A stretch of 64,000 nt of DNA from Escherichia phage Bp7. The position numbers were made by a program, and so were the translations under genes. The first letter of the stretch is position 1, and each line of letters opens with the position of its first letter. The notes beneath the pieces are model-generated. The model did not search any database. It was not told where the DNA came from and worked only from the letters and a program-made list of their open reading frames with translations. Positions 8,239 to 60,119 of the stretch are shown here, piece after piece. The stretch lies in sequence record NC_019500.1, one strand, 5' to 3'.

Positions 8239-8268
8239 GTTTACATACCACAAGGAACGTGGTAGTAT
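8239..8268 (+). promoter_or_regulatory. early promoter cassette
   Basis: gtttac, 18 bp, tagtat, then cctatcaact and gaggaa RBS. Confidence 0.4.
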
Positions 8269-8298
8269 CCTTCCTATCAACTACATGAGGAAATTACA

Positions 8299-8535
8299 AT
8301 GGAAGCTTTAATCGTTAGTGCTGGTGTTTTAGGATTCGGTTCTCTGGTTATTATGTTCATCGGTTACTTTTTACCATGGATTCTGGCTCTTCTGCGAGGC
8401 ACTCGTAGTAATGTCGGAATTTTCTTCCTTAATCTCCTGTTAGGCTGGACGATGATTGGTTGGGTAGTGGCTTTAATCTGGGCCATCGTCGCTGAACGTA
8501 AATCAAACGCTCAAATCATTATTGTTAAACAATGA
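8299..8535 (+). CDS. imm: small two-helix membrane protein, Imm-like superinfection immunity candidate
   Basis: 78 aa, hydrophobic, GW...GW pattern; located between 43 and the 42-like gene as T4 imm is. Confidence 0.4.
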   Translation: MEALIVSAGVLGFGSLVIMFIGYFLPWILALLRGTRSNVGIFFLNLLLGWTMIGWVVALIWAIVAERKSNAQIIIVKQ

Positions 8536-8669
8536 AAATAATTATTTTATTTCTTATAATGGCCGCCTTTACCATTTACTGGGCAGTGGCAATTCCACCA
8601 ATGATTCCGACACTAATCATCGGATGGATTATTCTTATAGCACAAATTAAGTATAACTGTTTTAATTGA
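8532..8669 (+). CDS. small hydrophobic membrane peptide (45 aa)
   Basis: ATG overlaps the upstream stop (ATGA); MKIIILFLIMAAFTIYWAVAIPPMIPTLIIGWIILIAQ. Confidence 0.3.
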   Translation: MKIIILFLIMAAFTIYWAVAIPPMIPTLIIGWIILIAQIKYNCFN

Positions 8670-8676
8670 GGATATT

Positions 8677-9177
8677 ATGAAAAAGTTAATTATCGCAATG
8701 AGTATGCTCCTATCAGGTTGCGCAGTCCAGTACGGTGATGCAGTTTCGGCTGATGAAGTTGGTAAAGCTCGTATCGCAGCTGAACAGAAACAATTCGATG
8801 GCGAAATGAAATTCCGTGCAGGTTCAGGACTTGTGTATACCCGAGCTAATAATCAATGTGGTAATAACTGTGCAAAATATGCTCAACGAGAAATTGAATT
8901 CCAACGTGAACAAGAGTCTAAGCGTGAAGCGGTACTAGCCAAACGCCAGGCAGAAATGAAGCGCCAAGATGATTTGTATAAAAAGCAGAAACTGTATGCG
9001 ATGTGCGTAAACCATATCAATCTACAGATTTCTATCCATGAGGCTCGTTATTACGAAATGCTCGAAACCGAAAGCTTTGATAAGGCCCGTGATTATAAGA
9101 AACAAATCAATAAGCTCAAGACCAAAGTGCCGGCAGCAATAGAACAGTGCATCGAAATCGGTAAAGATAAGATTTAA
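8677..9177 (+). CDS. lipoprotein (signal peptide plus lipobox LSGC) with coiled-coil C-terminal part
   Basis: MKKLIIAMSMLLSGCAVQ. Confidence 0.45.
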   Translation: MKKLIIAMSMLLSGCAVQYGDAVSADEVGKARIAAEQKQFDGEMKFRAGSGLVYTRANNQCGNNCAKYAQREIEFQREQESKREAVLAKRQAEMKRQDDLYKKQKLYAMCVNHINLQISIHEARYYEMLETESFDKARDYKKQINKLKTKVPAAIEQCIEIGKDKI

Positions 9178-9180
9178 GCA

Positions 9181-9209
9181 GTATCAATTTATTAAAAATA
9201 GTGTATAAT
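9181..9209 (+). promoter_or_regulatory. sigma70-type promoter with extended -10
   Basis: gtatca, 17 bp, tgTATAAT, upstream of the nucleotidyltransferase-kinase gene. Confidence 0.35.
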
Positions 9210-9237
9210 GTACCTACATTCACTTGAGGAACAGATA

Positions 9238-10911
9238 ATGAAAAAGGTTGTTATTTTAGGCGCAGGTCTTGGCTCACGGTTGTATCCAATTACTAACGAA
9301 ATCCCGAAGGTATTGGTTAACTACAAACAACATACAGTACTAAAACATTTGTATGATTTGTATAGTAACCAATCAGATGAAATCATTTTGGTAATTCATA
9401 GCAAATTTAATGACCTTGTTAAGGGTTACATTAAATCCATTAACATGATTACCAGTGATAAGCCTAAATTCATTATTCGTAACGTAGATGTTGCCAATGG
9501 TTCAGCTCATGCTATCGATTGCATTGCTGAAGATATCATCGGGCACAACGTCCTGTTTAACTGGTGTGACATCATTCCTGAGGGTCATAAAGTTGAGTGG
9601 GATAACGACTACTGTTATACCTACGGGACTGACTGTCGTTTTACATTTGAAGAACCGTATTTGCGTGAAATTGGTACCGGCGGTGGTGTGGTTGGTTTGT
9701 ATCAGGTGGCTAATTGGACAGGTTTCGACCGTTCTAATTATGGTGAAGACCTTGCCGACAACCTGGATTCGATGGTCTATTTGACTGAACGTAAGCTGGA
9801 CTTTGTAGTTGATGTAGGTGACAAACTGAAACTGGCTAAGGCCCATGAAGATTCCGAAATTAACCGTGAATTTAATAAATTAGAGTTCACTGAGAATCTG
9901 GCTATTAAAGTACCAACTAACGAATTAGGTAAAGAAATCCAATCTAAAGAAATCAATTGGTACAATTCTATTGATTCTGAATTCGTTCCGAGCATTGTAG
10001 ACTTTGCTCCAGGTGAATTCATTAAAATGGAACGTATCTTTGGACGCACCATGGCAGATGCCTACCGGTTTATGTCTAAAGAAACTAAAGTCCTCATGGT
10101 TTATAAGGTCATTAGTGCATTACGTTCATTTGGTGGAACCATCGATAATCCATCTGATGAGCAATGGTATTCTGATGTTAAGAAAGAAGTATTGGACAAG
10201 GTCCTTATTCGTAATGCTTCTATTGCTGGATTGATTGAAGGCTTTGCTCCACAGGGCATTACCCATGTCAATGACTTTAAGGTAGGCGACCCGGAAAAAC
10301 TTCTTCGTCACGCCTTAGAAATTCTGTCTGAACATAAAGAACCGTACCAACTTATTCATGGCGACCCGCACTACAGTAATATTATGTTGTCGGACGAAGG
10401 TAATATTAAAATCATCGACCCACGTGGTTATTTTGGTAATAGTTCTAAAGGCCCTGCGATTTATGATGAAGCTAAGGTGCTTTATTCTATCGATGGCTAT
10501 GACAAATTTAACTCTGACCCTCTATGGGGTGGCTTAACTCGTAACGGAACTCGTGTATTCGTTGATATTGAAAAGGTTATGCCTTTAGATGATATTCCAA
10601 TGTGTACATTTAAGCACAAGCTCTGGATTGCTGTTATCTGGATGGCACTGGCAGGTTACTTTAAAAATAACCCTCTGAAAGCTCTGGGTGCTTATTACAA
10701 TGGGCTATATCAACTGAGTGTGCTGCTGAAGCGGCATCCTCGTAAGCGTAAGCTTATCACAGGTGAATTCGTCGATGAAGTTCGCGACCCTATCACGGCT
10801 CAAATTATCACTCGTTGTCCTGATAAGTGGGTTTTGCTTGACCAGGAAACTGGTGTAAAATATAAACCTACAGGTTCTACCGAACTCCACAAACAATGGA
10901 AGAAAATTTAA
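9238..10911 (+). CDS. bifunctional nucleotidyltransferase (N-terminal) / APH-like kinase (C-terminal) fusion
   Basis: N-terminal ILGAGLGSRL (G-x-G-x-R-L sugar-phosphate nucleotidyltransferase motif); C-terminal HGDPHYSNIMLSDEGNIKIIDPRG (Brenner-type kinase catalytic loop). Confidence 0.55.
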   Translation: MKKVVILGAGLGSRLYPITNEIPKVLVNYKQHTVLKHLYDLYSNQSDEIILVIHSKFNDLVKGYIKSINMITSDKPKFIIRNVDVANGSAHAIDCIAEDIIGHNVLFNWCDIIPEGHKVEWDNDYCYTYGTDCRFTFEEPYLREIGTGGGVVGLYQVANWTGFDRSNYGEDLADNLDSMVYLTERKLDFVVDVGDKLKLAKAHEDSEINREFNKLEFTENLAIKVPTNELGKEIQSKEINWYNSIDSEFVPSIVDFAPGEFIKMERIFGRTMADAYRFMSKETKVLMVYKVISALRSFGGTIDNPSDEQWYSDVKKEVLDKVLIRNASIAGLIEGFAPQGITHVNDFKVGDPEKLLRHALEILSEHKEPYQLIHGDPHYSNIMLSDEGNIKIIDPRGYFGNSSKGPAIYDEAKVLYSIDGYDKFNSDPLWGGLTRNGTRVFVDIEKVMPLDDIPMCTFKHKLWIAVIWMALAGYFKNNPLKALGAYYNGLYQLSVLLKRHPRKRKLITGEFVDEVRDPITAQIITRCPDKWVLLDQETGVKYKPTGSTELHKQWKKI

Positions 10912-11270
10912 TGCATCTGTGTTTTGATATCGATAATACCATTACTCACTGGCAAGATGACCGTGATTACGAAAACTTTAAACCGGACACCGAAATGGTG
11001 TCCATGATTAATAAGCTTTATGATGAAGGGTACGAGATTACCTTGTTCACTGCCCGTGGTATGACTTCATGCGGCCCAGGTCGAATCTTGGTTGAAGTAG
11101 TTCCTGCATTAGTTAAGAACCTTGAAAAGATTGGATTGAAATATCACAATCTGCTTACACATAAGCCGAGTTATACTTTTATCATCGATGACCGAGCAAT
11201 CCGTCCTGACCACTTTAAAGAAATGGTTCGTGAAGGAACTCTTGAAACCTATAAGGCATATCATCCGTGA
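10911..11270 (+). CDS. HAD-superfamily phosphatase (small)
   Basis: DxDxT motif in MHLCFDIDNTI, FTARG and IIDDR motifs; alternative start at 10896. Confidence 0.5.
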   Translation: MHLCFDIDNTITHWQDDRDYENFKPDTEMVSMINKLYDEGYEITLFTARGMTSCGPGRILVEVVPALVKNLEKIGLKYHNLLTHKPSYTFIIDDRAIRPDHFKEMVREGTLETYKAYHP

Positions 11271-11803
11271 AACCAAAAATCATTGTTATCGACGGCCCGG
11301 ATAATTCCGGGAAGTCTACTTTAATTGAATCACTTTTATCTGATAAGAAATATCGTCTTATTGATTTCCCTAAAAAGATTAATGGCAAATGCATTTCATT
11401 AGGGACTGATAATGACAAGGCTTTAGTCGAGACGTTGTATAAGTTTTTAGACCCTAATTTTGTCTACATCTTAGACCGTGGGTATCCTAGTAATATTGTT
11501 TACTCTGGATTCCTTCGTGGTGAAATGGACCCTTATGTAGAACTGGAAGATTGGAAAGGGTTTAAATCTGAATTCAATATTATTGAGGTTATTTTAACCC
11601 GTAATCCACTGGATAAAGACTTTGAAGATGACCTTATTAAATTAACCAAAGATGAGTTCAACCTAACTATCCGGCAATATGAAACATGTTTTGAAAACGT
11701 GTTTAAAATCTTAAATCACGACGGCCATAATAACTTGCTTAACGTCGATATGGTAGAATTAAAACGTCTGAATGAATATATTGAAAATAAGGTGAATAAA
11801 TGA
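11267..11803 (+). CDS. P-loop nucleoside/nucleotide kinase, thymidylate-kinase-like
   Basis: Walker A IVIDGPDNSGKST and a DRGY...S motif (TMPK DRY-like). Confidence 0.5.
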   Translation: MKPKIIVIDGPDNSGKSTLIESLLSDKKYRLIDFPKKINGKCISLGTDNDKALVETLYKFLDPNFVYILDRGYPSNIVYSGFLRGEMDPYVELEDWKGFKSEFNIIEVILTRNPLDKDFEDDLIKLTKDEFNLTIRQYETCFENVFKILNHDGHNNLLNVDMVELKRLNEYIENKVNK

Positions 11804-12498
11804 AACACATTACCGCTGTTAGTTTTGAAAACGCGTTTAAGCAAATGAACGAAGAAATCCTGGAAGCTCCACAGTTTGCAGTTGATTCTCGTATCGGCCG
11901 TTGTTATGAAATTGGTTCTGCTTCGGTAGAAGTACTGGATGCAAGCACCTATAAATTCACCGACCCTCGTATTAATCGTATCAACTATGATTATGCCGAA
12001 TCTTTCTGGAAGTTTATGATTTCTGGTGGTACTGACGCCACCGAAGCATTTAAGGAATACCCTAATGTTGCTAAGTTCATTGATAAGCCGAAAAGTGACG
12101 TATTGCCTGCAAACTTCAACACTTTCTATGGACCTAGAATTGTGGCCCAACTCCCAGCCCTACTTAAAGAGCTTAAAGAAAAGCCTAACTCGAGACGAGT
12201 TGTGTTCCAAATTCTCCAAGAACAAGACCAAGCCCTCCTTGATTCTGACGAATCCTTAGAATATCCATGTACCGATTCGGTGACATATTATATTCGTGAT
12301 GGACGTCTGTATGCACACACCCATATGCGTTCACAGAACTGTGCTATCGTTATGCAGCTGGATTTCTATCTGCAGGGTAAACTGATGGCCTTTATTGCTG
12401 AACAGTGTGGTGTTGGTCTGGGTACATATTCCCATACTATGGTTAGTGCACATGTATTTGAACGTGATTTTGACTACGTTCGAGGATTCCTGAAATGA
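11800..12498 (+). CDS. 42: pyrimidine hydroxymethylase, gene-42-like (thymidylate synthase fold)
   Basis: YPCTDSVTYYIRD and HMRSQNCAIVMQLDFYLQ resemble the T4 gp42 catalytic Cys region; lies between 43 and uvsX. Confidence 0.6.
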   Translation: MKHITAVSFENAFKQMNEEILEAPQFAVDSRIGRCYEIGSASVEVLDASTYKFTDPRINRINYDYAESFWKFMISGGTDATEAFKEYPNVAKFIDKPKSDVLPANFNTFYGPRIVAQLPALLKELKEKPNSRRVVFQILQEQDQALLDSDESLEYPCTDSVTYYIRDGRLYAHTHMRSQNCAIVMQLDFYLQGKLMAFIAEQCGVGLGTYSHTMVSAHVFERDFDYVRGFLK

Positions 12499-13388
12499 GT
12501 TTGTTTATCGTTCCTATTTTCAGTATGCGTAGTTACGAAACAGGTGAATATGCCGTCCTTAAGGACGGTAATTTTCAACTCCATTTAAACCGTGCTTGCC
12601 CAGGTGATTATCTGGCTTATCCTAGAAATTCGAGCGATATCAAAGAATGCATTGAATTATTTCCTGAACTGAATTTTGTACCTCTTTGGTATAAAGAAAA
12701 TGCTTATGAAACTCGTAAACATTTTTGGTCTGAAAATGAGTTCGTTGTTGATTCGTTAATCGAATACTATGACTGCTCAGGATTGGTAACCGATATCACA
12801 GGTTATGAGGGTACCCAGACTGTACAATTCAACTTTAACATTACAATGGACCCTGAAGTTCCTCGTTATTATATTGATGAGTTCATTGATATCGACGTGT
12901 CTTCAGTTGAACGTTCGATTTATACTACAGTCTTGAATCAATGTCAGAAAGACGTCCTGGTGACACGAGGTGCGTCCTCTGATAAGATTTTTGTAGACCA
13001 AAAGGTAATTAATCCGGCAGTAATTGAGCGTTACTCTGAAGGTCTAGCGCCTATTAAAATTGATGGTATTTTCCATCCATTCCGTATCTCTGATAAATGC
13101 TATCAATTCGAAAGAGTTGTAGACCAAGCTGCGGCTGAAGGTTCTCGCCTTTATATCACCGATCCGAATGATTCATTTAAACGTGAAGACTATCGTCCTG
13201 ATGTAGAGATTATTAAATTCAAACCGAGTAAGGTTGAATATTATCAGATTCTGAAATCAAGACCTCATATCATTTATCATGAGAATCCTGGTTTAGTATT
13301 CCATCCAGGTCTAGCCGAATTCATTTATTTCGGTGCCCATATCCATTCTGAGCACGAAATGCCAAGTTATGAGGACGTGGTCCTTTAA
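12495..13388 (+). CDS. hypothetical protein at the position of T4 beta-glucosyltransferase; candidate DNA sugar transferase
   Basis: 297 aa, start overlaps the 42-like stop (ATGA); no motif recognised, assignment is positional only. Confidence 0.3.
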   Translation: MSLFIVPIFSMRSYETGEYAVLKDGNFQLHLNRACPGDYLAYPRNSSDIKECIELFPELNFVPLWYKENAYETRKHFWSENEFVVDSLIEYYDCSGLVTDITGYEGTQTVQFNFNITMDPEVPRYYIDEFIDIDVSSVERSIYTTVLNQCQKDVLVTRGASSDKIFVDQKVINPAVIERYSEGLAPIKIDGIFHPFRISDKCYQFERVVDQAAAEGSRLYITDPNDSFKREDYRPDVEIIKFKPSKVEYYQILKSRPHIIYHENPGLVFHPGLAEFIYFGAHIHSEHEMPSYEDVVL

Positions 13389-13413
13389 CGCTGTAAATGT
13401 GAAGTGATATAAT
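13384..13413 (+). promoter_or_regulatory. promoter upstream of uvsX
   Basis: tttaac, 18 bp, tgaTATAAT, then ccctatc. Confidence 0.3.
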
Positions 13414-13465
13414 TACCCTATCTTAAAACGTGAGTAAAATATAATGATGCCTATGGAAAAATATA

Positions 13466-14647
13466 ATGTCTGATTTAAAATCCCGTTTGATTAAAGCTTC
13501 TACTTCTAAAATGACCGCCGACCTGACCAAATCTAAATTGTTTAATGGTCGTGACGAAGTTCCTACTCGTATCCCTATGCTGAATATTGCATTGGGCGGT
13601 GCGTTGAATGCAGGCTTACAATCAGGTTTGACAATCTTTGCTGCTCCATCTAAACACTTTAAAACGTTGTTTGGACTTACCATGGTTGCGGCATATATGA
13701 AGAAATATCCAGACGCAATTTGTTTGTTCTATGACTCTGAGTTTGGTGCTTCAGAATCTTATTTCCGTTCGATGGGTGTTGATTTGGAACGTGTGGTTCA
13801 TACACCAATCCAGTCAGTCGAACAGCTTAAAGTTGATATGACCAACCAGTTAGAAGAAATTACTCGTGGCGAAAAGGTTATTATCTTTATCGACTCCATT
13901 GGTAACACTGCTTCTAAGAAAGAAACCGAAGATGCTTTGAACGAGAAAGTTGTAGGTGATATGACTCGTGCTAAATCACTGAAATCTCTGTTCCGTATCG
14001 TAACACCTTATCTGACCATCAAAGATATCCCTTGTGTAGCAATTAACCACACGGCTATGGAAATTGGTGGAATGTACCCTAAAGAGATTATGGGTGGTGG
14101 TACTGGTATTCTGTACTCTGCTTCTACCGTGTTCTTTATCTCTAAACGTCAGGTTAAAGATGGTACTGAGCTCACTGGTTATGACTTCACACTGAAGGCC
14201 GAGAAATCTCGTACGGTTAAAGAGAAATCAACGTTCCCGATTACAGTGAACTTCGAAGGTGGTATCGACCCATTCAGTGGATTGCTTGAAATGGCTACTG
14301 ATATTGGCTTTGTCGTGAAACCTAAAGCTGGCTGGTATAATCGTGCATTCCTTGACGAAACCACAGGCGAAATGGTTCAAGAAGAAAAAGCATGGCGTGC
14401 TAAAGCTACCGATTGTGTTGAGTTCTGGGGACCGCTGTTTAAACATGCTCCGTTCCGTGAAGCAATCGAGAATAAGTATAAGCTTGGTGCAATTAATTCT
14501 ATTAAAGAAGTTGACGATGCGGTAAATGACCTTATTAACTCTCGTGTCTCTAAGAACGTTGCTGTTAAATTAAGCGGAAATACCCAAAGCGCCGCTGATA
14601 TCGAAAACGATTTAGAAAATATGAATTTTGTGAGCGACCATGACTGA
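13466..14647 (+). CDS. uvsX: UvsX recombinase (RecA-like)
   Basis: MSDLKSRLIKASTSKMTADLTKSKLFNGRDEVPTRIPMLNIALGG is near-identical to T4 UvsX. Confidence 0.95.
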   Translation: MSDLKSRLIKASTSKMTADLTKSKLFNGRDEVPTRIPMLNIALGGALNAGLQSGLTIFAAPSKHFKTLFGLTMVAAYMKKYPDAICLFYDSEFGASESYFRSMGVDLERVVHTPIQSVEQLKVDMTNQLEEITRGEKVIIFIDSIGNTASKKETEDALNEKVVGDMTRAKSLKSLFRIVTPYLTIKDIPCVAINHTAMEIGGMYPKEIMGGGTGILYSASTVFFISKRQVKDGTELTGYDFTLKAEKSRTVKEKSTFPITVNFEGGIDPFSGLLEMATDIGFVVKPKAGWYNRAFLDETTGEMVQEEKAWRAKATDCVEFWGPLFKHAPFREAIENKYKLGAINSIKEVDDAVNDLINSRVSKNVAVKLSGNTQSAADIENDLENMNFVSDHD

Positions 14648-14969
14648 TTTATCTGATTTAGATAATTTTGTTAAAGATACCGAAGAGGGTCCTAGTGACC
14701 CTCGTTATTATGAGAAATCGTTAGATATAATCCGTAAGTCAATGGGTTCTGTTAAGCAGGAAATTATGCTTACTTTACCCGATGGCACTGCTCACATCGT
14801 TTATGTGATGAATATTGTTATTGAGAAAGATGGAAAAGTGTCGGTTGATTTCGGAACACCTTCCGAAGACCGAAAAGAAGAGCTAGCGCTTCATGTAGAA
14901 AAATGTGTTACAATGCAAATACAAGAAGAACTGGATAAAATTAAATCTAAGAGGTGGTGGAAGTGGTAG
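14640..14969 (+). CDS. 40: gp40-like head assembly protein
   Basis: 109-aa ORF between uvsX and 41. Confidence 0.5.
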   Translation: MTDLSDLDNFVKDTEEGPSDPRYYEKSLDIIRKSMGSVKQEIMLTLPDGTAHIVYVMNIVIEKDGKVSVDFGTPSEDRKEELALHVEKCVTMQIQEELDKIKSKRWWKW

Positions 14970-16393
14970 AAACTATTTTGGCTCAACTGCTAGGCAATAG
15001 TGATTATTTCACTAAGGTCTGGCCTTATATGAATGATTCTTATTTTGACCAGGGTCCTGCAAAGACCCTTTTCAAAGAAATTAAAAAACACGTCAATGAA
15101 TATAATGCAGTGCCTTCTAAGAACGCGCTGAGCATTGCATTAGATAACAGTACGCTTTCAGAAGTTGAACATCAAGGCGCTAAAGAGCTTTTAAGTTCAC
15201 TGAATGCCGGACCTGAAGACCAAGAATGGTTGGTTAAAGAGACGGAGAAATACGTTCAGAAAGCAGCGATGTATAATGCAACTTCAAAAATCATTGAAAT
15301 CCAAACTAATGCCGACCTTCCGGTTGAGCAACAAAATAGAAAACTTCCAGGTATTGGTGCTATTCCGGATATCATGCGTGATGCATTATCGATTTGTTTC
15401 GATTCTGAATTAGGTCATGACTGGATGGATGACTATGAAGAACGTTTCAAAAGTTATTCTGATAAAGCACGTAAGGTTCCGTTCCGTCTTAATATTCTGA
15501 ATAAGATTACCAAAGGTGGTGCCGAGTTTGGTACTGAAAACGTATTGTTGGCAGGAACAAACGTAGGTAAGTCTCTTGGTCTTTGTTCATTGGCTGCTGA
15601 TTATCTTCAATCTGGTTACGATGTTCTTTATATCTCCATGGAGATGGCAGAGGAAGTATGTGCTAAGCGTATCGATGCCAACCTTCTGGATGTATCACTG
15701 GATGATATCGATGATGGCCACGTCTCTTGGCCTGAATATAAAGCTAAGATGGATAAATGGCGTTCAACTGCTACTTTAGGTCGTTTAAAGATTAAACAGT
15801 ATCCTACTGGTGGTGCTAATGCCGATACATTCCGTGCATTATTAAACGAATACAAGCTCAAACAAAACTTTGTCCCTCAGGTTGTTATCGTCGACTACTT
15901 GGCTATCTGCGCATCGTCTCGTACGAAAGTTTTCTCTGAAAACAGTTACGGATTGATTAAGATGGTTGCTGAAGAACTACGTGGACTTGCAGTAGAGAAG
16001 AAATTATTGCTGTGGACAGCCGCCCAGACTACTCGTGGTGCAAACGTTGCAGCCGAAATCGATATGGCTGATATTGCTGAATCATTTGGTATTGCACATA
16101 CTGCAGACTTCATGTTGGGTGTGGTCGAGACAGAAGAGTTTGCTCAGATGGGTATGCAGATGGTTAAGCAGCTTAAATCTCGTTATGGTGATAAGAGCTA
16201 CTACAACAAATTTAAGATTGGTGTTAAGAAAGGAAATCAGCGTTGGTACGAAGTTGAAGATGATTCCAACCCGGGCCCAGTGAACACTGTTCGTGAGGCC
16301 ACAGGTGAGATGAATCGTCAAGCCGAGGTCAATCGACAGACGCGTGTTAATAGAAGTGATTTGGACGATTTAGCAGCATCTATCAAATTTTAA
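14954..16393 (+). CDS. 41: gp41 replicative DNA helicase (DnaB-like)
   Basis: 479 aa; LAGTNVGKSLGLCSLAADYL Walker A; co-linear with T4 gp41. Confidence 0.95.
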   Translation: MVEVVETILAQLLGNSDYFTKVWPYMNDSYFDQGPAKTLFKEIKKHVNEYNAVPSKNALSIALDNSTLSEVEHQGAKELLSSLNAGPEDQEWLVKETEKYVQKAAMYNATSKIIEIQTNADLPVEQQNRKLPGIGAIPDIMRDALSICFDSELGHDWMDDYEERFKSYSDKARKVPFRLNILNKITKGGAEFGTENVLLAGTNVGKSLGLCSLAADYLQSGYDVLYISMEMAEEVCAKRIDANLLDVSLDDIDDGHVSWPEYKAKMDKWRSTATLGRLKIKQYPTGGANADTFRALLNEYKLKQNFVPQVVIVDYLAICASSRTKVFSENSYGLIKMVAEELRGLAVEKKLLLWTAAQTTRGANVAAEIDMADIAESFGIAHTADFMLGVVETEEFAQMGMQMVKQLKSRYGDKSYYNKFKIGVKKGNQRWYEVEDDSNPGPVNTVREATGEMNRQAEVNRQTRVNRSDLDDLAASIKF

Positions 16394-16417
16394 GGAGCTT
16401 CGGCTCCTTTTTTGTTT
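16393..16417 (+). terminator. intrinsic terminator with UUCG tetraloop
   Basis: aggagcTTCGgctcc followed by tttttgtttt. Confidence 0.6.
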
Positions 16418-16422: not shown

Positions 16423-16451
16423 GTTTACATCTCCTGTAGGCGTGATACTAT
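16423..16451 (+). promoter_or_regulatory. early promoter cassette
   Basis: gtttac, 17 bp, tgaTACTAT, tagacctatcaact. Confidence 0.5.
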
Positions 16452-16475
16452 AGACCTATCAACTTGGAGAACAAA

Positions 16476-16793
16476 ATGAAAACCATCGACTGTAAAGCAG
16501 AATACAAAGTATATTATCACGGAAGTTGTAGTGTCGCTAATATCGGTAATATGCTTTGTCCTCCTGAGGAAACAGGAGTTCTGTCTGAAACCGGTCGTAA
16601 GAAAAACCTAAATCGTGTGTTCTTTACTGAAGATATCGGTTTGGCTAAGATTTATGCTGGACGTGCAGCTCGTTCAGTGGGAGGAGAACCTCGTCTTTAT
16701 CGTGTAATTGCTCCGGTAGATGTGGTTTGTTTAAATGATACTAAAGGCGCTACGGTTTATCATGCTGAATGGGCCTTCTGTGAGGAAATCTAA
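16476..16793 (+). CDS. small protein with Arr-like (rifampin ADP-ribosyltransferase-like) motif pattern
   Basis: YYHGS ... KIYAG ... LYRVIAPVD in a 105-aa protein; carried on its own promoter-terminator cassette between 41 and dmd. Confidence 0.3.
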   Translation: MKTIDCKAEYKVYYHGSCSVANIGNMLCPPEETGVLSETGRKKNLNRVFFTEDIGLAKIYAGRAARSVGGEPRLYRVIAPVDVVCLNDTKGATVYHAEWAFCEEI

Positions 16794-17370: not shown

Positions 17371-17400
17371 GTTTACAACGGTCTATGGTAGTGATACTAT
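17371..17400 (+). promoter_or_regulatory. early promoter cassette
   Basis: gtttac, 18 bp, tgaTACTAT, ggacctatcaact, gaggag. Confidence 0.45.
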
Positions 17401-17428
17401 GGACCTATCAACTACCGAGGAGAACATT

Positions 17429-17722
17429 ATGAAAAAGTTATTAATCGCAGCAATCCTTACAGTAGCATCATGTGGCACAGCTCCAGTTACGGCTGGATTG
17501 GATAAAGACCTGTGTGAATGGTCTATGACTGCAGACCAAGAATCAGTCGAACATCAGATTTATGCCGATATCATGAACATCACTAAACGCGACCGCCCTG
17601 ATATGGTTAAAGAAGTGTCAGACCAATTGGCTTCAAGCGGTGTTATGCAATATAACTATGTTTTGTATTGCGATGCCAATTTCGATAACAAAAATATCGT
17701 TAAAGAGGTGACAGGTGAATAA
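17429..17722 (+). CDS. sp: Spackle (Sp) periplasmic superinfection-exclusion protein
   Basis: 97 aa; signal/lipobox MKKLLIAAILTVASC; DKDLCEWSMTADQ and QYNYVLYCD resemble T4 Sp. Confidence 0.6.
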   Translation: MKKLLIAAILTVASCGTAPVTAGLDKDLCEWSMTADQESVEHQIYADIMNITKRDRPDMVKEVSDQLASSGVMQYNYVLYCDANFDNKNIVKEVTGE

Positions 17723-18155
17723 GATTAACAGAAATTTAGTTATCAAAAAACTTCGTTGTAAAAATCCAAATGCACAAGCATACAGGATGTTTTGGAGCGA
17801 CGACCACCAGTACCTAGGTTATTTTCTTGTTGATAGTGATAATATAATTACGTTTGCTCATAAACTTCTTAACAAAGAATTAAACCATTGGCAAGAACTT
17901 ATTGCAGTGAGGTCTAAATTGTTTTCACGTAATGCAATGCACCAATTGGTTTATTTTTTCGCTGAAGGTATTCCTGACAAGGTCGAGTTTGATGGATTCG
18001 AATTTAAAGATATCCTCCCGGACAACGAATTGAACGACTGCATTAATATAGATGTCCCTAGCAAGTATATCAAAAATAGCCTGTTGAAAATTCTGGAAGC
18101 CCCAGTTTATTCAATTGACGACCAGATTTTTAATGCCTTTATGAATCGAGGTTAA
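17715..18155 (+). CDS. hypothetical protein (61.2 position)
   Basis: 146-aa ORF; GTG start overlapping the sp stop. Confidence 0.35.
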   Translation: MNKINRNLVIKKLRCKNPNAQAYRMFWSDDHQYLGYFLVDSDNIITFAHKLLNKELNHWQELIAVRSKLFSRNAMHQLVYFFAEGIPDKVEFDGFEFKDILPDNELNDCINIDVPSKYIKNSLLKILEAPVYSIDDQIFNAFMNRG

Positions 18156-18156
18156 T

Positions 18157-18348
18157 ATGAGTGCAATGTGTACGGGCTCTAAGATTTCTGTATTCGAATT
18201 ATTCGAAGAGTATGAAATCGTATCAAAGGACCAAGAAGCTATCCATATTATTGCCGGTGATGGTGTGACTTGGATTATCCCACTGTATCATGAAGATACC
18301 TATGAAGTCACTGATGCGAATGGTGATAAAGCTATTTTCGTAATATAA
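18157..18348 (+). CDS. hypothetical protein
   Basis: 63-aa ORF. Confidence 0.3.
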   Translation: MSAMCTGSKISVFELFEEYEIVSKDQEAIHIIAGDGVTWIIPLYHEDTYEVTDANGDKAIFVI

Positions 18349-18564: not shown

Positions 18565-19593
18565 ATGTCATATGTCGATAAAGAATTTGCTGTACGTGCC
18601 TTGAATTACCAACCTAAATTCAGACAAGTAACTGGTAGTGATTTTAAATTAAACTGTCGTTGTCGTGTATGCGGTGACTCTCAAAAAGATGAGAACAAAG
18701 CTCGTTTTTGGGCCTATCCGGCTAATGACGGCTCTGTAATGCTGCACTGTTTTAACTGTGACTATTCAGCAGGAATTAAGAAGTATCTATACGAATACGA
18801 GCCTGATTTATATCGCGAATATATTCTTGAGAAACATAAAGAGCAATCGTTCGGGAGACAAGCTGCACCTAAGGTGGAGATATCTGAAAAAATTAAAGCT
18901 AAGATGCCTGTCATCGAAAAGCTTAATTTCTGTGAACGATTAGATAGGATGCCGAAGGACCATCCTATTATCAAATATGTGACGTTACGTTGCATTCCTG
19001 AAAACAAATGGAACCGGCTGTGGTTTACTAAAGAATGGCCTGCATTAGTTAACTCTGTGAATCCAGGGACCTATTCTAAAGAAATGCCTGAGCCTCGTTT
19101 GGTTATTCCAATTTTCAATAAGAATAAACAAATTGAAAGTTTTCAGGGTCGAGCCTTACGTAAAGATGCTCCACAAAAATATATTACAATAAAAGCTCAC
19201 GACCAAGCTACAAAAATATATGGAATGGATACAGTTGACGAACGTCAGTTGGTGTGGGTAATGGAAGGCCCTATTGACTCTTTGTTTGTTCCGAATGCAA
19301 TAGCAATTACTGGCGGGTCGTTGGACTTGGCTATGGTTCCGTGCAAAGAAACTAGGGTTTGGGCCCTTGATAGCGAAAGCCGCCACCCAGATACTATTTC
19401 AAGAATGAAAAAGCTTATCGAGGCTGGTGAAAAAGTAGTGTTTTGGGATAAGGTCCCTTGGCCTTCTAAAGATATTAACGATATGATTAGAAAAGACGGG
19501 GCGTCGCCGGAAGCAATACTAGAATATATGAAAAGTAATTACAGTCAAGGATTAATGGCTAAATTGAGATTACAACGGTATGCTAAAATATGA
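18565..19593 (+). CDS. 61: gp61 DNA primase
   Basis: 342 aa; zinc ribbon CRCRVCGD...CFNC; FQGRALRKDAPQKYITI resembles T4 gp61. Confidence 0.9.
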   Translation: MSYVDKEFAVRALNYQPKFRQVTGSDFKLNCRCRVCGDSQKDENKARFWAYPANDGSVMLHCFNCDYSAGIKKYLYEYEPDLYREYILEKHKEQSFGRQAAPKVEISEKIKAKMPVIEKLNFCERLDRMPKDHPIIKYVTLRCIPENKWNRLWFTKEWPALVNSVNPGTYSKEMPEPRLVIPIFNKNKQIESFQGRALRKDAPQKYITIKAHDQATKIYGMDTVDERQLVWVMEGPIDSLFVPNAIAITGGSLDLAMVPCKETRVWALDSESRHPDTISRMKKLIEAGEKVVFWDKVPWPSKDINDMIRKDGASPEAILEYMKSNYSQGLMAKLRLQRYAKI

Positions 19594-20345
19594 ATTATAA
19601 TAAAATTTATGACGATTTGGTTAATAGGGCCCTTGAAAGGGGTCTTATTAAAGAAAATTTAAAATACTATACAGAATCTCATCATATTATACCTGAATGT
19701 ATAGGTGGGCCTGATATAGATTCAAACAAAGTATTATTTACGGCAAGAGAGCATTTTATAGCTCACATATTATTGTATAAGATTTATAAGTTGCCTAAAT
19801 TAATATATGCTGTGCATATGATGTGCAATTCTAGTGAAAAGCACCAAAGAAATTCTAAGATGTATGACTGGCTTAGAAAGGACCATAAAGCAGCCTTAAG
19901 TAAGAAAATGACCGATGCTTGGAAAGCCCCTGAATTTAGGACCAAAATGGTGGCGGCCTTATACCAAAGGCACAAAGATAAGCCCGTCACAGAGGAGACT
20001 AGGGAAAAACAGTCTAATTCTCTAAAGAGGTATTATAAAGAAAATCCTATCTCTGAAGAAGCAAAAAAGAAAAATTCAGAAGCCCAAAAACAAAGGTTTA
20101 AAGATAGGCCTCAAACAGAAGAAACAAAAAGATTAAGGAAGGACTCATGCAGAAAAACCCAAGGCACCCCTATATGGTTATGTAATTCGAATGGGGTAGG
20201 AATAGAAAAGTTTTCTTCTGCGGCAGAAGCTAAAGAAATCTTAGGATTGTCCGGGCACACCCAAAATATATACACCGCTTGTAAGCGAAACAAAGAAACC
20301 GGGAGATTGTATAAATCCTCCGGTTTAATTTGGAAATATCAATAA
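19590..20345 (+). CDS. HNH homing endonuclease (Mob-like), paralogous to the 592-1308 gene
   Basis: HHIIPECIGGPD; N-terminus MNYNKIYDDLVNRALERG parallels MNYKSIYEKLIQRAVNR; AT-rich with AGA/AGG/ATA codons; start overlaps the gp61 stop (ATGA). Confidence 0.7.
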   Translation: MNYNKIYDDLVNRALERGLIKENLKYYTESHHIIPECIGGPDIDSNKVLFTAREHFIAHILLYKIYKLPKLIYAVHMMCNSSEKHQRNSKMYDWLRKDHKAALSKKMTDAWKAPEFRTKMVAALYQRHKDKPVTEETREKQSNSLKRYYKENPISEEAKKKNSEAQKQRFKDRPQTEETKRLRKDSCRKTQGTPIWLCNSNGVGIEKFSSAAEAKEILGLSGHTQNIYTACKRNKETGRLYKSSGLIWKYQ

Positions 20346-21444: not shown

Positions 21445-21449
21445 TTATA

Positions 21450-21477
21450 AGGAACCTTCGGGTTCCTTTTTTGGTTT
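21450..21477 (+). terminator. intrinsic terminator with UUCG tetraloop
   Basis: aggaaccTTCGggttcc followed by ttttttggtttt. Confidence 0.6.
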
Positions 21478-21482: not shown

Positions 21483-21512
21483 GTTTACTTTCTAGGAAGG
21501 CCGTGTTAAGAT
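21483..21512 (+). promoter_or_regulatory. early promoter cassette
   Basis: gtttac, 18 bp, tgtTAAGAT, then gaggag RBS. Confidence 0.4.
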
Positions 21513-21538
21513 GGTCTTATCTTATAGAGGAGAACACT

Positions 21539-21736
21539 ATGTTAAATCGTTGGATTAAACCTAATAATGCAGTAGGTGCTTTGATTGCTCAAGAAGTTTC
21601 GCTTAAATACGGGTTAGGGTATCATGACGATGTTATTACGCATTCTTTTATGATGTATGAAGATAATTCTGTAGAATTTAATGCAGAAATCCGCTTAGAC
21701 AATGGCGATGTAAAATTTGTGAGAGGTTTCCTATGA
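21539..21736 (+). CDS. hypothetical protein
   Basis: ORF starting MLNRWIKPNN after a GAGGAG RBS. Confidence 0.3.
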   Translation: MLNRWIKPNNAVGALIAQEVSLKYGLGYHDDVITHSFMMYEDNSVEFNAEIRLDNGDVKFVRGFL

Positions 21737-55199: not shown

Positions 55200-55228
55200 G
55201 TTTACTTCCTTAAAACCCATGATATAAT
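55200..55228 (+). promoter_or_regulatory. early promoter upstream of rnh
   Basis: gtttac, 17 bp, tgaTATAAT, ggacctctcaact. Confidence 0.45.
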
Positions 55229-55259
55229 GGACCTCTCAACTACTTGAACAGAGGTTCAT

Positions 55260-56207
55260 ATGAACGATTTAGATTTTTTACTTCCTGAAGAAGACCAACA
55301 AAAAGATGGATTTTTACTCCTAGATTTCAGCCAAATCATTATGGCGGCGGCTTTCCAAGAGTTTGGTGAGAATGCTGGATTTCCTAAAGTAACTACCGCA
55401 ATGCTTCGACACCTCGTGTTGAATTCAATTAAGAAAAACATTAAAGACTTCCGTAAACAAGGTTACAACCAATTAATTATTTGTGTTGATAACTCCAAAT
55501 CAGGTTATTGGCGTCGTCGTTATTCTTCTTATTATAAGAAAAACCGTGCTAAGGCTCGTGACGAATCACCATTTGATTGGGAAGGTTTATTCACAGCAAT
55601 GCATATTATTGTTGATGAACTGGAACAAAACATGCCTTATATTGTTATGAATATCGATACAATCGAAGCTGACGACCATATTGCTGTTTTAACCCGAATC
55701 CTTACGGCTTTAGGCCACCCTGTTATGATTGGTTCTTCTGATGGTGACTTTACCCAACTTCATAAATTCCCTGGTGTAAAACAATGGTCCCCAATGCAGA
55801 AAAAATTCGTCAAAACAAAATCTGGTGATGCATTGCTTGATTGCGTGACTAAGGTTGTTAAAGGTGACCGTAAAGATAACGTCGCGAGTATTAAAGTTCG
55901 TGGTGATTATTGGTTGACCATGGTTGAAGGCGAGCGTACTCCTAGCACTCGTGCCAAGGAACTTGAAGCAATTGCTCTTAATTATTATGACCATGATATA
56001 ATTAAAACACTTCTTACTGAAGAACAATATGAACGTTTCTGTGAAAACCAAATCTTAATTGATATGGACTTTATTCCGGATGATATTGTTGCTTTAATTA
56101 CTGAAAGATATAATACGTATAACAAACCTTCGAAATCTAAAGTTTATCCTTATTTCGTTAAATCGGGTTTGTCTAAACTAACCGCTACAGTAGCTGATTT
56201 TTATTAA
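55260..56207 (+). CDS. rnh: RNase H (FEN-1-like 5'-3' exonuclease)
   Basis: 315 aa; LLDFSQI..., CVDNSKSGYWRR, IGSSDGDFTQLHK resemble T4 RNase H. Confidence 0.85.
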   Translation: MNDLDFLLPEEDQQKDGFLLLDFSQIIMAAAFQEFGENAGFPKVTTAMLRHLVLNSIKKNIKDFRKQGYNQLIICVDNSKSGYWRRRYSSYYKKNRAKARDESPFDWEGLFTAMHIIVDELEQNMPYIVMNIDTIEADDHIAVLTRILTALGHPVMIGSSDGDFTQLHKFPGVKQWSPMQKKFVKTKSGDALLDCVTKVVKGDRKDNVASIKVRGDYWLTMVEGERTPSTRAKELEAIALNYYDHDIIKTLLTEEQYERFCENQILIDMDFIPDDIVALITERYNTYNKPSKSKVYPYFVKSGLSKLTATVADFY

Positions 56208-59077: not shown

Positions 59078-59104
59078 TGGGAAGACTTCGGTCTTCCCTT
59101 TTTG
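59078..59104 (+). terminator. intrinsic terminator with UUCG tetraloop after gene 32
   Basis: gggaagacTTCGgtcttccc followed by tttttgg. Confidence 0.6.
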
Positions 59105-59113
59105 GCATTTAAT

Positions 59114-59142
59114 GGTTTACAATGCCTTTAAACATGATACTA
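59114..59142 (+). promoter_or_regulatory. early promoter cassette
   Basis: gtttac, 17 bp, tgaTACTAT, tagaccttatcaact. Confidence 0.45.
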
Positions 59143-59173
59143 TAGACCTTATCAACTACATGAGGAAATAAAA

Positions 59174-59536
59174 ATGGAAACTGGTAAAACTTACGCATTA
59201 GACCCTTCTTCTAAAAGAAAATTCATTGAGGGTAGTCCTGACGATAACTCACGTATGGTCAAACTGATGGAACAACACGGTGGTTCCTTTAAAGTCCTGG
59301 ATATGTGTTATATCGACGGTGATTATTTTGTTGAAAAAGTTGAAATGAAAGACGGTACTATCTTAGATAGCCTAGATAATGCTGATGAATATTTTGAACT
59401 CGCTGAATGGGAATTCAAACACTTCATAGAAGTAGATGATACCCCTGTAATAGATATCCAAACCATTCATGTACAAGTCAATCATAAAAATGCGGCAGAA
59501 GTTGTTGCCTTGATTAAAGCTACCTTTGGAATTTAA
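59174..59536 (+). CDS. hypothetical protein
   Basis: 120-aa ORF. Confidence 0.35.
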   Translation: METGKTYALDPSSKRKFIEGSPDDNSRMVKLMEQHGGSFKVLDMCYIDGDYFVEKVEMKDGTILDSLDNADEYFELAEWEFKHFIEVDDTPVIDIQTIHVQVNHKNAAEVVALIKATFGI

Positions 59537-59537
59537 C

Positions 59538-59798
59538 ATGACTAAAGATGATTTCCTGGATGCAGTAGAAAAAGCCAGCGAACAATTCGAAGTTATGGGT
59601 GTACGAGTCCATAAAGACAGAAATTACGGGCTCGATATCCAAACGTATTCATTATGGCTTGTAGGTGAACATAGTCTTGTAACCACCTTAGTTATGGGTG
59701 TTGATGCACAACCTTTACTGGTTAAATTCAGAAGTATGGAAAAAGCTACCAAAGAAATGATTAAACTTGGTAAATGGCTCGATAAAATTCAAAAATAA
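59538..59798 (+). CDS. hypothetical protein
   Basis: ORF starting MTKDDFLDAV. Confidence 0.35.
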   Translation: MTKDDFLDAVEKASEQFEVMGVRVHKDRNYGLDIQTYSLWLVGEHSLVTTLVMGVDAQPLLVKFRSMEKATKEMIKLGKWLDKIQK

Positions 59799-59800
59799 GC

Positions 59801-59829
59801 GTTTACATCTGCTTTAAACATGATACTAT
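59801..59829 (+). promoter_or_regulatory. early promoter cassette
   Basis: gtttac, 17 bp, tgaTACTAT, tagacctatcaact. Confidence 0.45.
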
Positions 59830-59861
59830 AGACCTATCAACTAATGAGTGAGGAAAATAAA

Positions 59862-60089
59862 ATGGCTAAGGTTAATATTGATATCGTTGATTTTGAATAC
59901 ACTTACGAAGTTATCCGTAATCGTTATCCTTCTTTAGTTATGACCCATATTAAAGATACTCAATTCTGTAGTATGCAAATTGAAGTCCAAGGTCCTCTTG
60001 AAGACCTTACCCGCTTTATGGCTGACGAGTATTGTGACGGTATGCACCCGGAAGACGCTAAATTTTATACGGGCTTAATTCAAAAATAA
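59862..60089 (+). CDS. hypothetical protein
   Basis: ORF starting [13 protein letters not shown]. Confidence 0.35.
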
Positions 60090-60119
60090 GTTTACACCAG
60101 GCTATGGTAGTGATACTAT
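60090..60119 (+). promoter_or_regulatory. early promoter cassette
   Basis: gtttac, 18 bp, tgaTACTAT flanked by aggctat / atagcct. Confidence 0.45.

Follow-up and report, generated by a model that had tools for sequence, protein, structure and literature searches.

Why do some twenty promoters that precede unrelated genes resemble each other so closely? The question is raised by a stretch of 64,000 nucleotides (nt) of Escherichia phage Bp7 (NC_019500.1), here called the window, in which a unit with the sequence of an early promoter recurs between positions 8239 and 60147. A first-pass annotation had taken these units to be early promoters that spread as mobile regulatory cassettes, comparable to the promoter-early stem-loops (PeSLs) of T4-type phages. 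On the evidence set out below, the units are very probably sigma-70-dependent immediate-early promoters of a Dhakavirus, built as PeSL-type composite cassettes, with recombination between copies deleting, inserting and exchanging small open reading frames (ORFs). Judged by similarity and gene order, the window is the early region of a Dhakavirus, a JS98-like T4-type coliphage, and is syntenic with T4. A 10-kb piece of it shares 95% identity with Escherichia phage PSD2002 and 88-93% with QL01, WG01, IME08 and JS98, and the annotated relatives used for comparison are classified as Dhakavirus, Tevenvirinae.

The unit was defined as an A-rich tract, GTTTAC, a spacer of 17-18 bp, TGnTA(C/T)TAT or TGTTATAAT, usually (C)CTATCAAC(T), a short leader, GAGG or GGAG and ATG. 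The window holds 21 convincing units of this kind and one doubtful one, which bears out the family of about 20 first proposed; all lie on the plus strand and none on the minus strand. Their -35 hexamers start at 8239, 16423, 17371, 21483, 23092, 23714, 24453, 27822, 28931, 29581, 33087, 37891, 38306, 39049, 41433, 41757, 44134, 55200, 59115, 59801 and 60090, and the cassettes are named here by these positions. The doubtful match (GTTTAC-N18-TAAGAT, 42341-42370, plus strand) lies within the motA coding sequence, lacks a box, a Shine-Dalgarno (SD) sequence and an ATG, and is probably no cassette.

GTTTAC-N15-20-TANNAT occurs 20 times in the window against 1.75+/-1.44 expected, and the strict pattern GTTTAC (at most one mismatch)-N17/18-TGnTAnnnT occurs 23 times on the plus strand and not once on the minus strand, an asymmetry that is similar in six relatives. 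The 24-mer CATGATACTATAGACCTATCAACT has seven matches at up to three mismatches (16441, 17390, 24471, 38324, 41451, 41775 and 59819), all on the plus strand, and none in shuffled sequence; the copy at 59131 is missed by this gapless search because of a 1-nt insertion (AGACCTTATCAACT). Among the example copies named at first, those at 16441, 24471 and 41451 are correctly placed, those at 41774 and 59821 are off by 1-2 nt, and that at 59131 is the copy with the insertion. The description of the copies as near-identical is apt within subfamilies, such as 41433, 41757, 59115 and 59801, but not across the whole family. A repeat search blind to promoters finds the units as the largest dispersed direct-repeat families of the window, with D1 comprising 12 copies of 47 nt and families D2, D3, D6 and D11 likewise made up of units. 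A generic sigma-70 scan gives 67 sites against 57 expected and fails to pick out the family, so that a T4-type consensus is needed. One good generic match, TTGACC-N16-TG-TATGAT at 22965-22992, lies in a 62-codon ORF upstream of the modB cassette, has no box or SD, and was rejected.

Aligned on the -35 and -10 hexamers, the units give the consensus aaaaAa..GTTTAC(a/t), a 17-18-bp spacer, (c/g)aTG(a/t)TA(c)tAT, about 5 nt, (C)CTATCAAC(T)a, GAGG or GGAG, A-rich sequence and ATG. The aaaaAa directly upstream of GTTTAC forms an A-rich, UP-like tract with 0.5-1.1 bits per position. The box CCTATCAACT is matched at up to one mismatch 20 times in the window (4.0+/-2.1 expected), 14 of these matches lying within units and the remaining six being at chance level. 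Present in 15-16 of the 22 units, it starts 5-6 nt after the -10 hexamer in every copy that bears it, while anything from 1 to about 25 nt separates it from the SD. Because the usual distance from -10 to start is 7 nt, the first A of TATCAAC is the predicted +1 (16458, 27858, 41792 and 59836 are examples), and transcripts would thus begin AUCAAC. The box also follows the -10 subtype, accompanying 14 of 15 TAnTAT hexamers and one of eight TATAAT or other hexamers (Fisher p = 2.5e-4). The leaders are 12-43 nt long (median about 22) and are predicted to be essentially unstructured (0 to -3.7 kcal/mol); since the whole window, compared with Rfam at gathering thresholds, yielded no match, they belong to no curated RNA family. 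An SD and ATG follow in 21 of the 22 units, the exception being the doubtful 42341. From a reading of the ORF list, a single ORF stands before the next cassette at only about 7 of the 22; the idea that each unit precedes one small ORF holds for these, whereas the others head operons of 2-9 genes.

That the units are early promoters, as first supposed, is indicated by their sequence and their positions. All are on the early-transcribed strand, the T4-type consensus lies upstream of orthologues of T4 early genes, and at least 16 of the 21 convincing units stand at gene junctions where T4 has an early-promoter-like site; the shared junctions include those after genes 43 and 41 and those before sp, mrh.2, modB, srd, motB.2, motB, motA, asiA, rnh and frd.x. 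The T4 early promoters (Hinton 2010, PMC2988021; Nolan et al. 2006, PMC1524935) have the same UP-like A tract, GTTTAC -35 and extended -10, TGTG(A/G)TA(C/T)(A/T)AT, and resemble the units also in strand, in location at gene junctions and in having extra consensus beyond the E. coli elements; they differ in that the set in the window phage is more homogeneous. The units are absent from 1-8238 and from 8302-16391 (the replication core), number 17 in 16.4-44.2 kb, are absent again from the late block at 44.5-55.2 kb, and number four in 55.2-60.1 kb. MotA-dependent middle promoters were considered and rejected as an identity for them: in place of a MotA box, (a/t)(a/t)TGCTT(t/c)A, at -30, the cassettes have GTTTAC at -35 and no TGCTT. 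Sites resembling middle promoters do occur elsewhere, at about 1270-1304 and 1540-1576 in the 45/44/62 region, where a MotA box (TGCTTTA or AAGCTTT) lies about 12 nt upstream of ATTGATTTATAAT. Promoter activity, the +1, terminator or attenuator activity and SD masking are carried over here by analogy from the T4 and PeSL literature. On that basis, host RNA polymerase would fire from the cassettes right after infection, and the cassettes would drive the early regulators (motA, asiA, modA, modB, srd, motB, ndd, imm and sp) together with many small accessory ORFs.

If promoter function accounts for the -35, the -10 and the position, it does not readily account for the spacers. Across the six Dhakavirus relatives the spacer is the least conserved part of the cassette (91.3% identity, against 97.0% for the box, 97.4% for the -10 and about 95.7% for the flanks), and between the window and T4 the spacers of positional orthologues are unrelated despite the conserved promoter position. 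Yet cassettes 41433, 41757, 59115 and 59801 share the spacer (A/T)TCTGCTTTAAACA (AATGCCTTTAAACA in one of them) as well as the -10 and the box, and the proteins encoded after them (ORF-A, MotA, a 120-residue protein and a 75-residue protein) are unrelated. Gene duplication was rejected as the source of near-identical cassettes: an all-against-all BLASTP comparison finds only the paralogues modA and modB, whose promoters differ. Spacers are also shared out of place between phages. That of the imm cassette at 8239, ATACCACAAGGAACG, matches the non-orthologous T4 promoter downstream of denB at 14 of 15 positions, and that of the cef cassette at 29581 matches the non-orthologous T4 frd.1 promoter equally well, where the expected number of such 14/15 matches is 8e-5; in Tequatrovirus G9062, motA is immediately preceded by the spacer that the window has in its motA cassette. 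In families D11 and D12 the homology between copies takes in the SD and extends past the ATG into the opening codons of unrelated genes; cassettes 29581 and 59801 (D12) share the SD, the ATG and the first four codons. A further repeat family, D5 (GAGGAnATTATGAAAAAGTTAnTnATCGCA, at 8668-8697, 17420-17449 and 38352-38381), combines a shared SD with the N-terminal sequence MKKL(I/L)IA, which resembles a signal peptide, in small proteins that otherwise differ.

Natural variants show exchange unusually cleanly at the slot upstream of motA (41391-41823), which is either empty or holds one of three different ORFs, and in which one 60-nt cassette contains three or more independent crossover points. 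In the window and in ABTNLsp5 the order is P1-ORF-A-P2, where P1 (41433-41502, plus strand) precedes ORF-A (71 codons, phrog_6200) and P2 (41757-41823, plus strand) is the motA promoter, with a 34-nt core identical to that of P1 (CTGCTTTAAACATGATACTATAGACCTATCAA). MN04 has P1-ORF-C-P2, and AnYang has P1-ORF-B and then a half cassette without a -35. In PSD2002, PSD9 and fDHCT2 there is one cassette only, made by three different junctions. The PSD2002 junction joins the P1 spacer variant to the P2 leader, placing the crossover within the 34-nt identical core; in PSD9 the P1 leader is kept and is joined to motA within GGAGATACAAAATG, the SD-ATG stretch; fDHCT2 has the P2 variant throughout, with its junction upstream of the core. 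ORFs A, B and C fall in three different PHROG families of unknown function, and the ORF-A state is found in only 11 of 194 phage-collection records that hold the motA locus. The box sequence AGACCTATCAA also recurs at 41697-41710, in the last codons of ORF-A (...EIKDLSI*) about 50 nt before P2, which could be chance or a relic of an earlier junction.

Other slots vary in a similar way. At 37891, PSD2002 has an extra 75-codon ORF between 33-nt direct repeats of the cassette, and at 16423, ABTNLsp5 has an extra promoter-plus-ORF module whose left junction is inside the -10 of that cassette. In relatives a 235-bp ORF is inserted exactly at the -35 edge of cassette 23092, and in PSD2002 a replacement of the 120-codon ORF after 59115 has its left edge 22 nt inside that ORF. 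Such comparisons of presence and absence between related phages, proposed as a check in the first-pass annotation, thus reveal variable slots at motA, 37891 and 16423, but show most cassettes to be positionally stable. It is mainly the ORFs between cassettes that move, with promoter sequences changing by conversion. The copies share 34-50 nt or more of identity in intergenic positions, and homologous recombination between them deletes, inserts or exchanges the flanked ORFs and also converts one promoter sequence into another.

An alternative is that the units are ordinary early promoters only, similar to each other through independent selection for use by the (Alt-modified) host RNA polymerase, with indels merely falling at gene junctions. 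Their positions are indeed largely conserved with T4, the box is found in distant T4-like phages, and the -35, TGn, -10 and box are the parts best conserved among orthologues; T4 early promoters, moreover, have extra consensus regions (PMC2988021). In an own tally from gap lists of structural differences of at least 60 bp, with homing-endonuclease genes left out, 7 of 19 events have edges in cassettes (p = 0.0025 against random placement), but there is no enrichment over a gene-junction null (p = 0.79), in which about a quarter of junctions carry a cassette and the junction count is approximate. The case for cassette exchange therefore rests on the mapped junctions. These lie inside shared cassette sequence or flank cassette duplications, and neither they, nor (near-)identity of the least constrained part of the promoter at four sites before unrelated genes, nor the two non-orthologous T4 matches, nor homology reaching the first codons of unrelated genes, would be expected from selection on promoters alone. 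Ordinary promoters as the whole explanation are accordingly unlikely. The first-pass annotation had allowed that its claim would fall if the conserved flanks were just part of the ordinary T4 early promoter consensus; this applies to the box, and not to the shared spacers and mapped junctions, which uphold its claim of spread and shuffling.

Exchange might instead be the work of a dedicated system, the cassettes being sites of site-specific recombination or transposition, like integron attC sites or miniature inverted-repeat transposable elements, rather than substrates of general homologous recombination. Single-ORF modules bounded by cassettes do resemble integron cassettes, an analogy drawn for PeSLs (PMC2839356), and many copies contain inverted repeats. 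However, the sequence and register of these repeats vary from copy to copy, target-site duplications and conserved terminal inverted repeats are lacking, and the annotated relatives have no integrase or transposase genes. The three genomes with an empty motA slot, furthermore, have three junction points (upstream of the core, in the 34-nt core and in the SD-ATG stretch), and such spread-out junctions fit homologous exchange rather than cleavage at a fixed site. A dedicated system is the least credible of the alternatives considered, and homologous recombination between cassette copies is the preferred reading.

The box raises a separate question, since the conservation of sequence beyond the needs of a promoter was initially taken as a sign of mobility. 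The excess is real: the summed information of the unit is about 46 bits, about 11 of them downstream of the -10, where specifying 22 sites among 128,000 positions takes 12.5 bits (log2(128000/22)). The box, though, is not peculiar to the window. In 74 kb of T4, early-strand TACTAT sites have ACAACTATCAACTACTGA (also given as ACAACTATCAACT) or TACCCTATCAA at the box offset, and the T4 promoters bearing the CTATCAAC box are those before imm.1, ndd.6, ndd.4, motA and frd.1; 15 of 23 strict-pattern sites have a box in the window, against 5 of 19 in the 74 kb of T4. A 53-nt cassette query matches 402 phage records, at 10-13 places per Dhakavirus genome and at one in many Tequatrovirus genomes, and also matches phages of Klebsiella, Serratia, Edwardsiella, Yersinia and Erwinia. 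An exact scan of IMG/VR for GTTTAC-N14/15-TGnTACTAT-N5/6-TATCAAC finds 106 stretches, and the TATAAT version finds 25; the latter, with its box, occurs in the Acinetobacter phages Acj61 and AbTZA1 and in a contig with a cyanomyovirus-like capsid gene. Among the IMG/VR matches listed, chosen on the -35, TGn and -10 only, the box follows 10.5% of TACTAT and 3.9% of TATAAT sites, rough figures from samples that include chance matches in unrelated contigs. The frequency expected by chance can be put, roughly, at about 0.5%.

The occurrence of the box in T4 and in Acinetobacter T4-like phages, at the same 5-6 nt from the -10, points to a start-site element of the T4-type early promoter. By these comparisons the CCTATCAACT box is a lineage-wide start-site element, and its presence is no evidence of mobility; this weakens the argument that a conserved flank by itself signals mobility. 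It is of the kind of additional consensus region that has been mentioned without detail for T4 early promoters (PMC2988021), and C is preferred at -3 to -1 in RB69, RB49 and 44RR, in logos that end at the start site (PMC1524935). The texts consulted, whose T4 early-promoter consensus ends at -10 or +1, give no explicit description of the box.

The box, being predicted to be largely transcribed (+1 to +8), could alternatively act mainly as RNA, providing a standard 5' end (AUCAACU...) for a factor that sets stability, capping, processing or translation. In favour of this, the leaders are uniformly short and unstructured, and their SDs consist of GGAG with A-rich sequence, a known type of RegB/S1 target (PMC3014915). 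Counted on the same side is the predicted -3 to +2 context (CCTAT), which departs from the initiation sequence that favours a nicotinamide adenine dinucleotide (NAD) cap. The distances speak otherwise, since it is the spacing to the -10 that is fixed, and the spacing to the SD and ATG that varies. In addition, the box is not above chance away from promoters, has no Rfam match and has no structure or covarying partner inside the cassette's own transcript, and the same facts are explained by a role in the promoter as initially transcribed sequence or in start-site selection. Pairing of the box with the 3' end of 16S rRNA was considered by eye and dropped; the nearest 16S rRNA complement of the box lies within helix 45. 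A primarily RNA-level role is thus very unlikely, and a start-site element of the promoter is preferred.

Stem-loops, the other half of the PeSL comparison, are of two kinds. The first is the UUCG hairpin. Five of the six such hairpins with a T-run on the plus strand have a cassette within 25 nt downstream, the distances being given as 6-25 nt. Terminator-like hairpins with T-runs lie at 16392-16417 after gene 41 (AAGGAGC-TTCG-GCTCCTT, 6 nt before the next cassette), at 21449-21476 after soc, at 41391-41418 after genes 52/52.1 and at 59079-59106 after gene 32, and a UUCG hairpin at 33063-33086 (AAGGGCC-TTCG-GGCCCTT) directly precedes cassette 33087. The claim that many copies follow a UUCG terminator is therefore good for 5 of the 22 units and not for the others. 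At these five cassettes the fused upstream terminator would insulate the unit from upstream transcription. Two UUCG hairpins without a T-run, at 36859-36874 and 39636-39651, stand immediately before the SDs TAATGAGG and AATGAGGA; they are not terminator-like and could be RNA stabilisers or processing sites. Another UUCG hairpin, at 5446-5490 just upstream of gene 43 (AAAGGGAC-TTCG-GTCCCTTT), is followed by GGAG, TATAAT, 5 nt and ATCAAC, and has no GTTTAC -35. This may represent a 'half cassette', the translational operator hairpin of gp43, or the two combined, and is perhaps the JS98 'PeSL-like sequence' at the g43 locus that is mentioned in PMC2839356.

The second kind is embedded in the promoter itself. 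The spacer pairs with the downstream sequence of its own cassette better than with that of others (permutation p = 4e-4 in the window), and the same preference is found in an independent set of 20 T4 promoters (p = 2e-4). This comparison of cognate and non-cognate pairs replaced alignment-based covariation for the stems that straddle the -10, which was dropped because the stem registers differ between cassettes (i+j = 1, -4 and -5). A stem-loop of some kind is present at at least 13 of the 22 units, the rest having no convincing one, and specific spacer/leader inverted repeats are clear in about eight, or about a third of the units. They take two forms.

In the first form the stem closely flanks the -10. 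Cassette 28931 (28931-29004, before motB) and cassette 39049 (39049-39129, before ndd), both of family D6 with TGT TATAAT and no box, have respectively a 9-bp stem, GAGGGCCAT/ATGGCTCTC, and a 10-bp stem, CGAGAATCAT/ATGGTTCTCG, that straddle the -10 and rank 0/20 against non-cognate leaders. The stem AGGGTA/TACCCT surrounds the -10 in 29581-29643, before a cef-like ORF of 74 codons (-35 GTATAC, TACTAT and box), as does AGGCTAT/ATAGCCT in 60090-60147, before a 79-codon ORF preceding frd (TACTAT and box CTTATCAACT). The fifth is 21483-21541, before an mrh.2-like ORF, an orthologue of the T4 mrh.2 promoter with TGT TAAGAT and the degenerate box TTATCTTAT.

In the second form the 3' arm contains the SD. 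Cassette 27822 (27822-27880, before a motB.2-like ORF; TATTAT and box) has an 11-bp perfect inverted repeat of spacer TTCTCCTCATG with CATGAGGAGAA, SD included (-17.9 kcal/mol, rank 0/20). It is the positional orthologue of the T4 motB.2 promoter, which at about 8.2 kb on the map is apparently, by map position only, the studied T4 promoter P8.1 of PMC2988021. Cassette 38306 (38306-38363, before a 36-codon ORF; -35 GTATAC, TATTAT and box) has a 10-bp perfect inverted repeat, ATCTCCATTA with TAATGGAGAT, again with the SD included and with rank 0/20. In 23092-23147, before modB (-35 TTTTAC, TGT TATAAT, no box), ACCTCC of the spacer pairs with the SD GGAGGT, and the last of this form is 16423-16478, before a 105-codon ORF that heads the dmd cluster (TGA TACTAT, box CCTATCAACT, predicted +1 at 16458, ATG at 16476). 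Besides these, cassette 17371 (17371-17431, before sp, the 97-codon spackle gene; TACTAT and box, predicted +1 at 17407) has a spacer/leader inverted repeat of rank 0/20 and a spacer family shared with 60090, and in 23714-23771, before modA (TACTAT and box), a hairpin (AAGCAAGGATGCTT) lies within the spacer. Comparable stems are found in the T4 promoters before ndd.4, motB.2 and alc.

Since the 5' arm lies upstream of the predicted start, these hairpins would form only in read-through RNA and not in the cassette's own transcript. In predicted folds the SD has an unpaired probability of 0.3 or less in 11 of 21 read-through RNAs, against none of 21 own transcripts; the values for read-through and own transcript are 0.00 and 0.83 at 27822, 0.00 and 0.62 at 38306, and 0.00 and 0.55 at 23092. 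A cassette-specific hairpin may thus attenuate read-through, or mask the SD in read-through RNA so that translation relies on the cassette's own promoter. The PeSL authors treated stem-loops that they place 'between the -35 and -10' or 'overlapping the -10' as terminators or attenuators (PMC2839356), and SD masking in transcripts initiated upstream is established for T4 e, soc, 49 and I-TevI (PMC3014915). In these genes too a promoter lies in or next to the hairpin, the 3' arm holds the SD or AUG, and upstream-initiated transcripts are masked while those from the proximal promoter are translatable. There, however, the proximal promoter is of the late or middle class and the arrangement serves temporal control, whereas here, on the sequence alone, an early promoter would be set in early read-through; extension of SD masking to these early promoters is by analogy.

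A stronger version of this idea is that the box and the bridging inverted repeat jointly form a functional module under selection in T4-like early promoters, one that Tequatrovirus, Dhakavirus and the Acinetobacter T4-likes have all conserved and that is no mere by-product of descent or recombination. Such a module would provide a standard 5' end, rapid escape and insulation. No description of the combined module was found in the T4 and PeSL literature consulted on these promoters. It is put forward tentatively, as a possibility with the balance somewhat against it. The box and the hairpins within the promoter offer testable clues to the strength and insulation of T4-type early promoters.

Several points weigh against reading the units as PeSL-type cassettes that exchange ORFs. 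Indel edges are, as described, no more frequent at cassettes than at gene junctions, and many structural differences have nothing to do with cassettes (homing-endonuclease genes, segF in relatives and the ORF-precise indels at 18155 and 29853). Specific inverted repeats are convincing in only about 8-11 of 21 cassettes. Longer RNAs fold more anyway, so that the contrast in SD accessibility is supported mainly by the cognate versus non-cognate control. The association of box and -10 subtype could reflect tight physical linkage, that is, common descent of a 20-nt block, rather than functional coupling. Finally, the +1 position, promoter strength and the terminator or hairpin functions are all predictions.

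The likeness to PeSLs, which Arbiol et al. (2010, PMC2839356) defined in RB49 and phi1 and Comeau et al. (2014, PMC4122927) later described in PST/T4 and nt-1/KVP40, is nevertheless close, as the first-pass annotation had suggested. As far as sequence can tell, every defining feature is present: a sigma-70-type early promoter with -35 and -10 separated by 17+/-1 bp (22 units, with TG at -15/-14); an AT-rich tract upstream; an associated stem-loop (five upstream UUCG hairpins, the spacer/leader repeats and the spacer-internal hairpin at 23714); an SD and start codon at the 3' end (21 of 22); concentration in hyperplastic early regions and rarity in core and virion modules; and indels in relatives that are bounded by copies, with junctions inside the element. 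PeSLs likewise combine an AT-rich tract, an early promoter, a stem-loop of variable position (upstream, in the spacer or over the -10), an SD and an ATG in some 60-100 bp; they are intergenic, beside small ORFs in hyperplastic early regions, and an ORF between two copies in one phage can correspond to a single copy in a relative, with crossovers within the element. The PST/T4 form of the promoter, TTTACW-N17-TAYWAT, is the form in the window. The differences are that the genus here is Dhakavirus, JS98 having been named in 2010 only for 'PeSL-like sequences' near gene 43; that the RB49 stem-loops are of a G-run/C-run type and those of the window are not; that the start-site box, and the SD as the 3' arm of the stem in some copies, are unmentioned in the texts of the two PeSL papers (PMC2839356, PMC4122927); and that mini-circles and promoter and terminator activities were measured in the PeSL papers, where the window cassettes are known as sequence.

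Other modular systems are less similar. The T-even internal-protein elements (Repoila et al. 1994, as cited in PMC2839356) also present accessory genes as self-contained modules with conserved flanks that extend into the first codons, but, in that account, are confined to two loci. Lambdoid 'morons' are small accessory genes in self-contained expression modules without conserved flanks, and integron cassettes differ from the window's in having a dedicated integrase and attC sites. With these cassettes, modular gene shuffling on the PeSL model would reach a fourth branch of the T4-type phages. In annotation, the cassette can be used directly to search Dhakavirus genomes, many of them under consideration for phage therapy, for immediate-early transcription units and for slots in which accessory genes vary; in engineering, the cassettes may mark safe sites of insertion or replacement with strong early expression signals of their own.

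The remaining cassettes, all on the plus strand, complete the family. The first (8239-8301) lies after gene 43 and before imm (78 codons), with GTTTAC, an 18-bp spacer, TGG TAGTAT, the box CCTATCAACT, predicted +1 at 8276, SD GAGGA and ATG at 8299. That before srd (24453-24524) has TACTAT, the box CCTATCAGCT and a 34-nt leader, and that at 33087-33137, before a 107-codon ORF preceding rIIA.1/rIIA, has TGA TACGAT, no box and a 12-nt leader. Cassette 37891-37951, downstream of denB and before an 88-codon ORF, has TACTAT and the box; the asiA cassette (44134-44206) has TGT TAGTAT and the box CCTATCAGAT. Cassette 55200-55262, with TGA TATAAT and the partial box CCTCTCAACT, precedes rnh, the first early-strand gene past the late tail-fibre block. 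At 59115-59176, before the 120-codon frd.2/3-like ORF, the spacer is of the motA-cassette subfamily and the box contains the 1-nt insertion (families D1 and D11), and at 59801-59864, before the 75-codon ORF, there is an exact match to the 24-mer CATGATACTATAGACCTATCAACT.

The order of genes around them, from the ORF map compared with T4 and relatives, is 43, imm, uvsX, 40, 41, sp, 61, 56, soc, mrh, modB, modA, srd, dda, dexA, motB, cef, 39, rIIA, rIIB, denB, ndd, 52, motA and asiA on the plus strand, then the minus-strand late block at 44.5-55.2 kb (t and 38-34), and then rnh, 33, 59, 32, frd, td and nrdA. The gene downstream of cassette P2, motA (41821-42455), is broken into two ORFs of 69 and 141 codons by a 1-nt deletion at 42011, in a run that is A4 in the window and A5 in PSD2002, whose motA is intact at 211 codons; the break could come from a sequencing or assembly error, or the phage could be a true motA frameshift mutant. 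Likewise srd (24522-25270) ends early, with 221 codons against 244 in relatives, through a 1-nt deletion at 25091, where TCTAT-ATTGG stands in place of TCTTTAATCGG. As this is the second single-base frameshift in an early regulator, a homopolymer-type assembly error is likely.

Elsewhere, a homing-endonuclease gene at 19590-20345 (phrog_655) is present in PSD2002 and absent from the other five of six relatives, and another at 30362-31042 (phrog_10820/314, HNH) is absent from all six; relatives have instead a segF-like insertion at window position 21170 and, in PSD9, one of 2.4 kb at 20582. The window lacks 190 bp at 18155 (18153-18160) that are present in all six relatives, an ORF-precise difference away from cassettes, and a goF-like segment of 384-501 bp at 29853 (29851-29856) that is present in five of six, again ORF-precise and with no cassette. 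The most divergent part of the window is formed by the minus-strand genes 38 and 37 (45.2-49.3 kb), which encode the tail-fibre adhesin and are 71-81% identical to, or unalignable with, all relatives, as is expected because they are host-range determinants.

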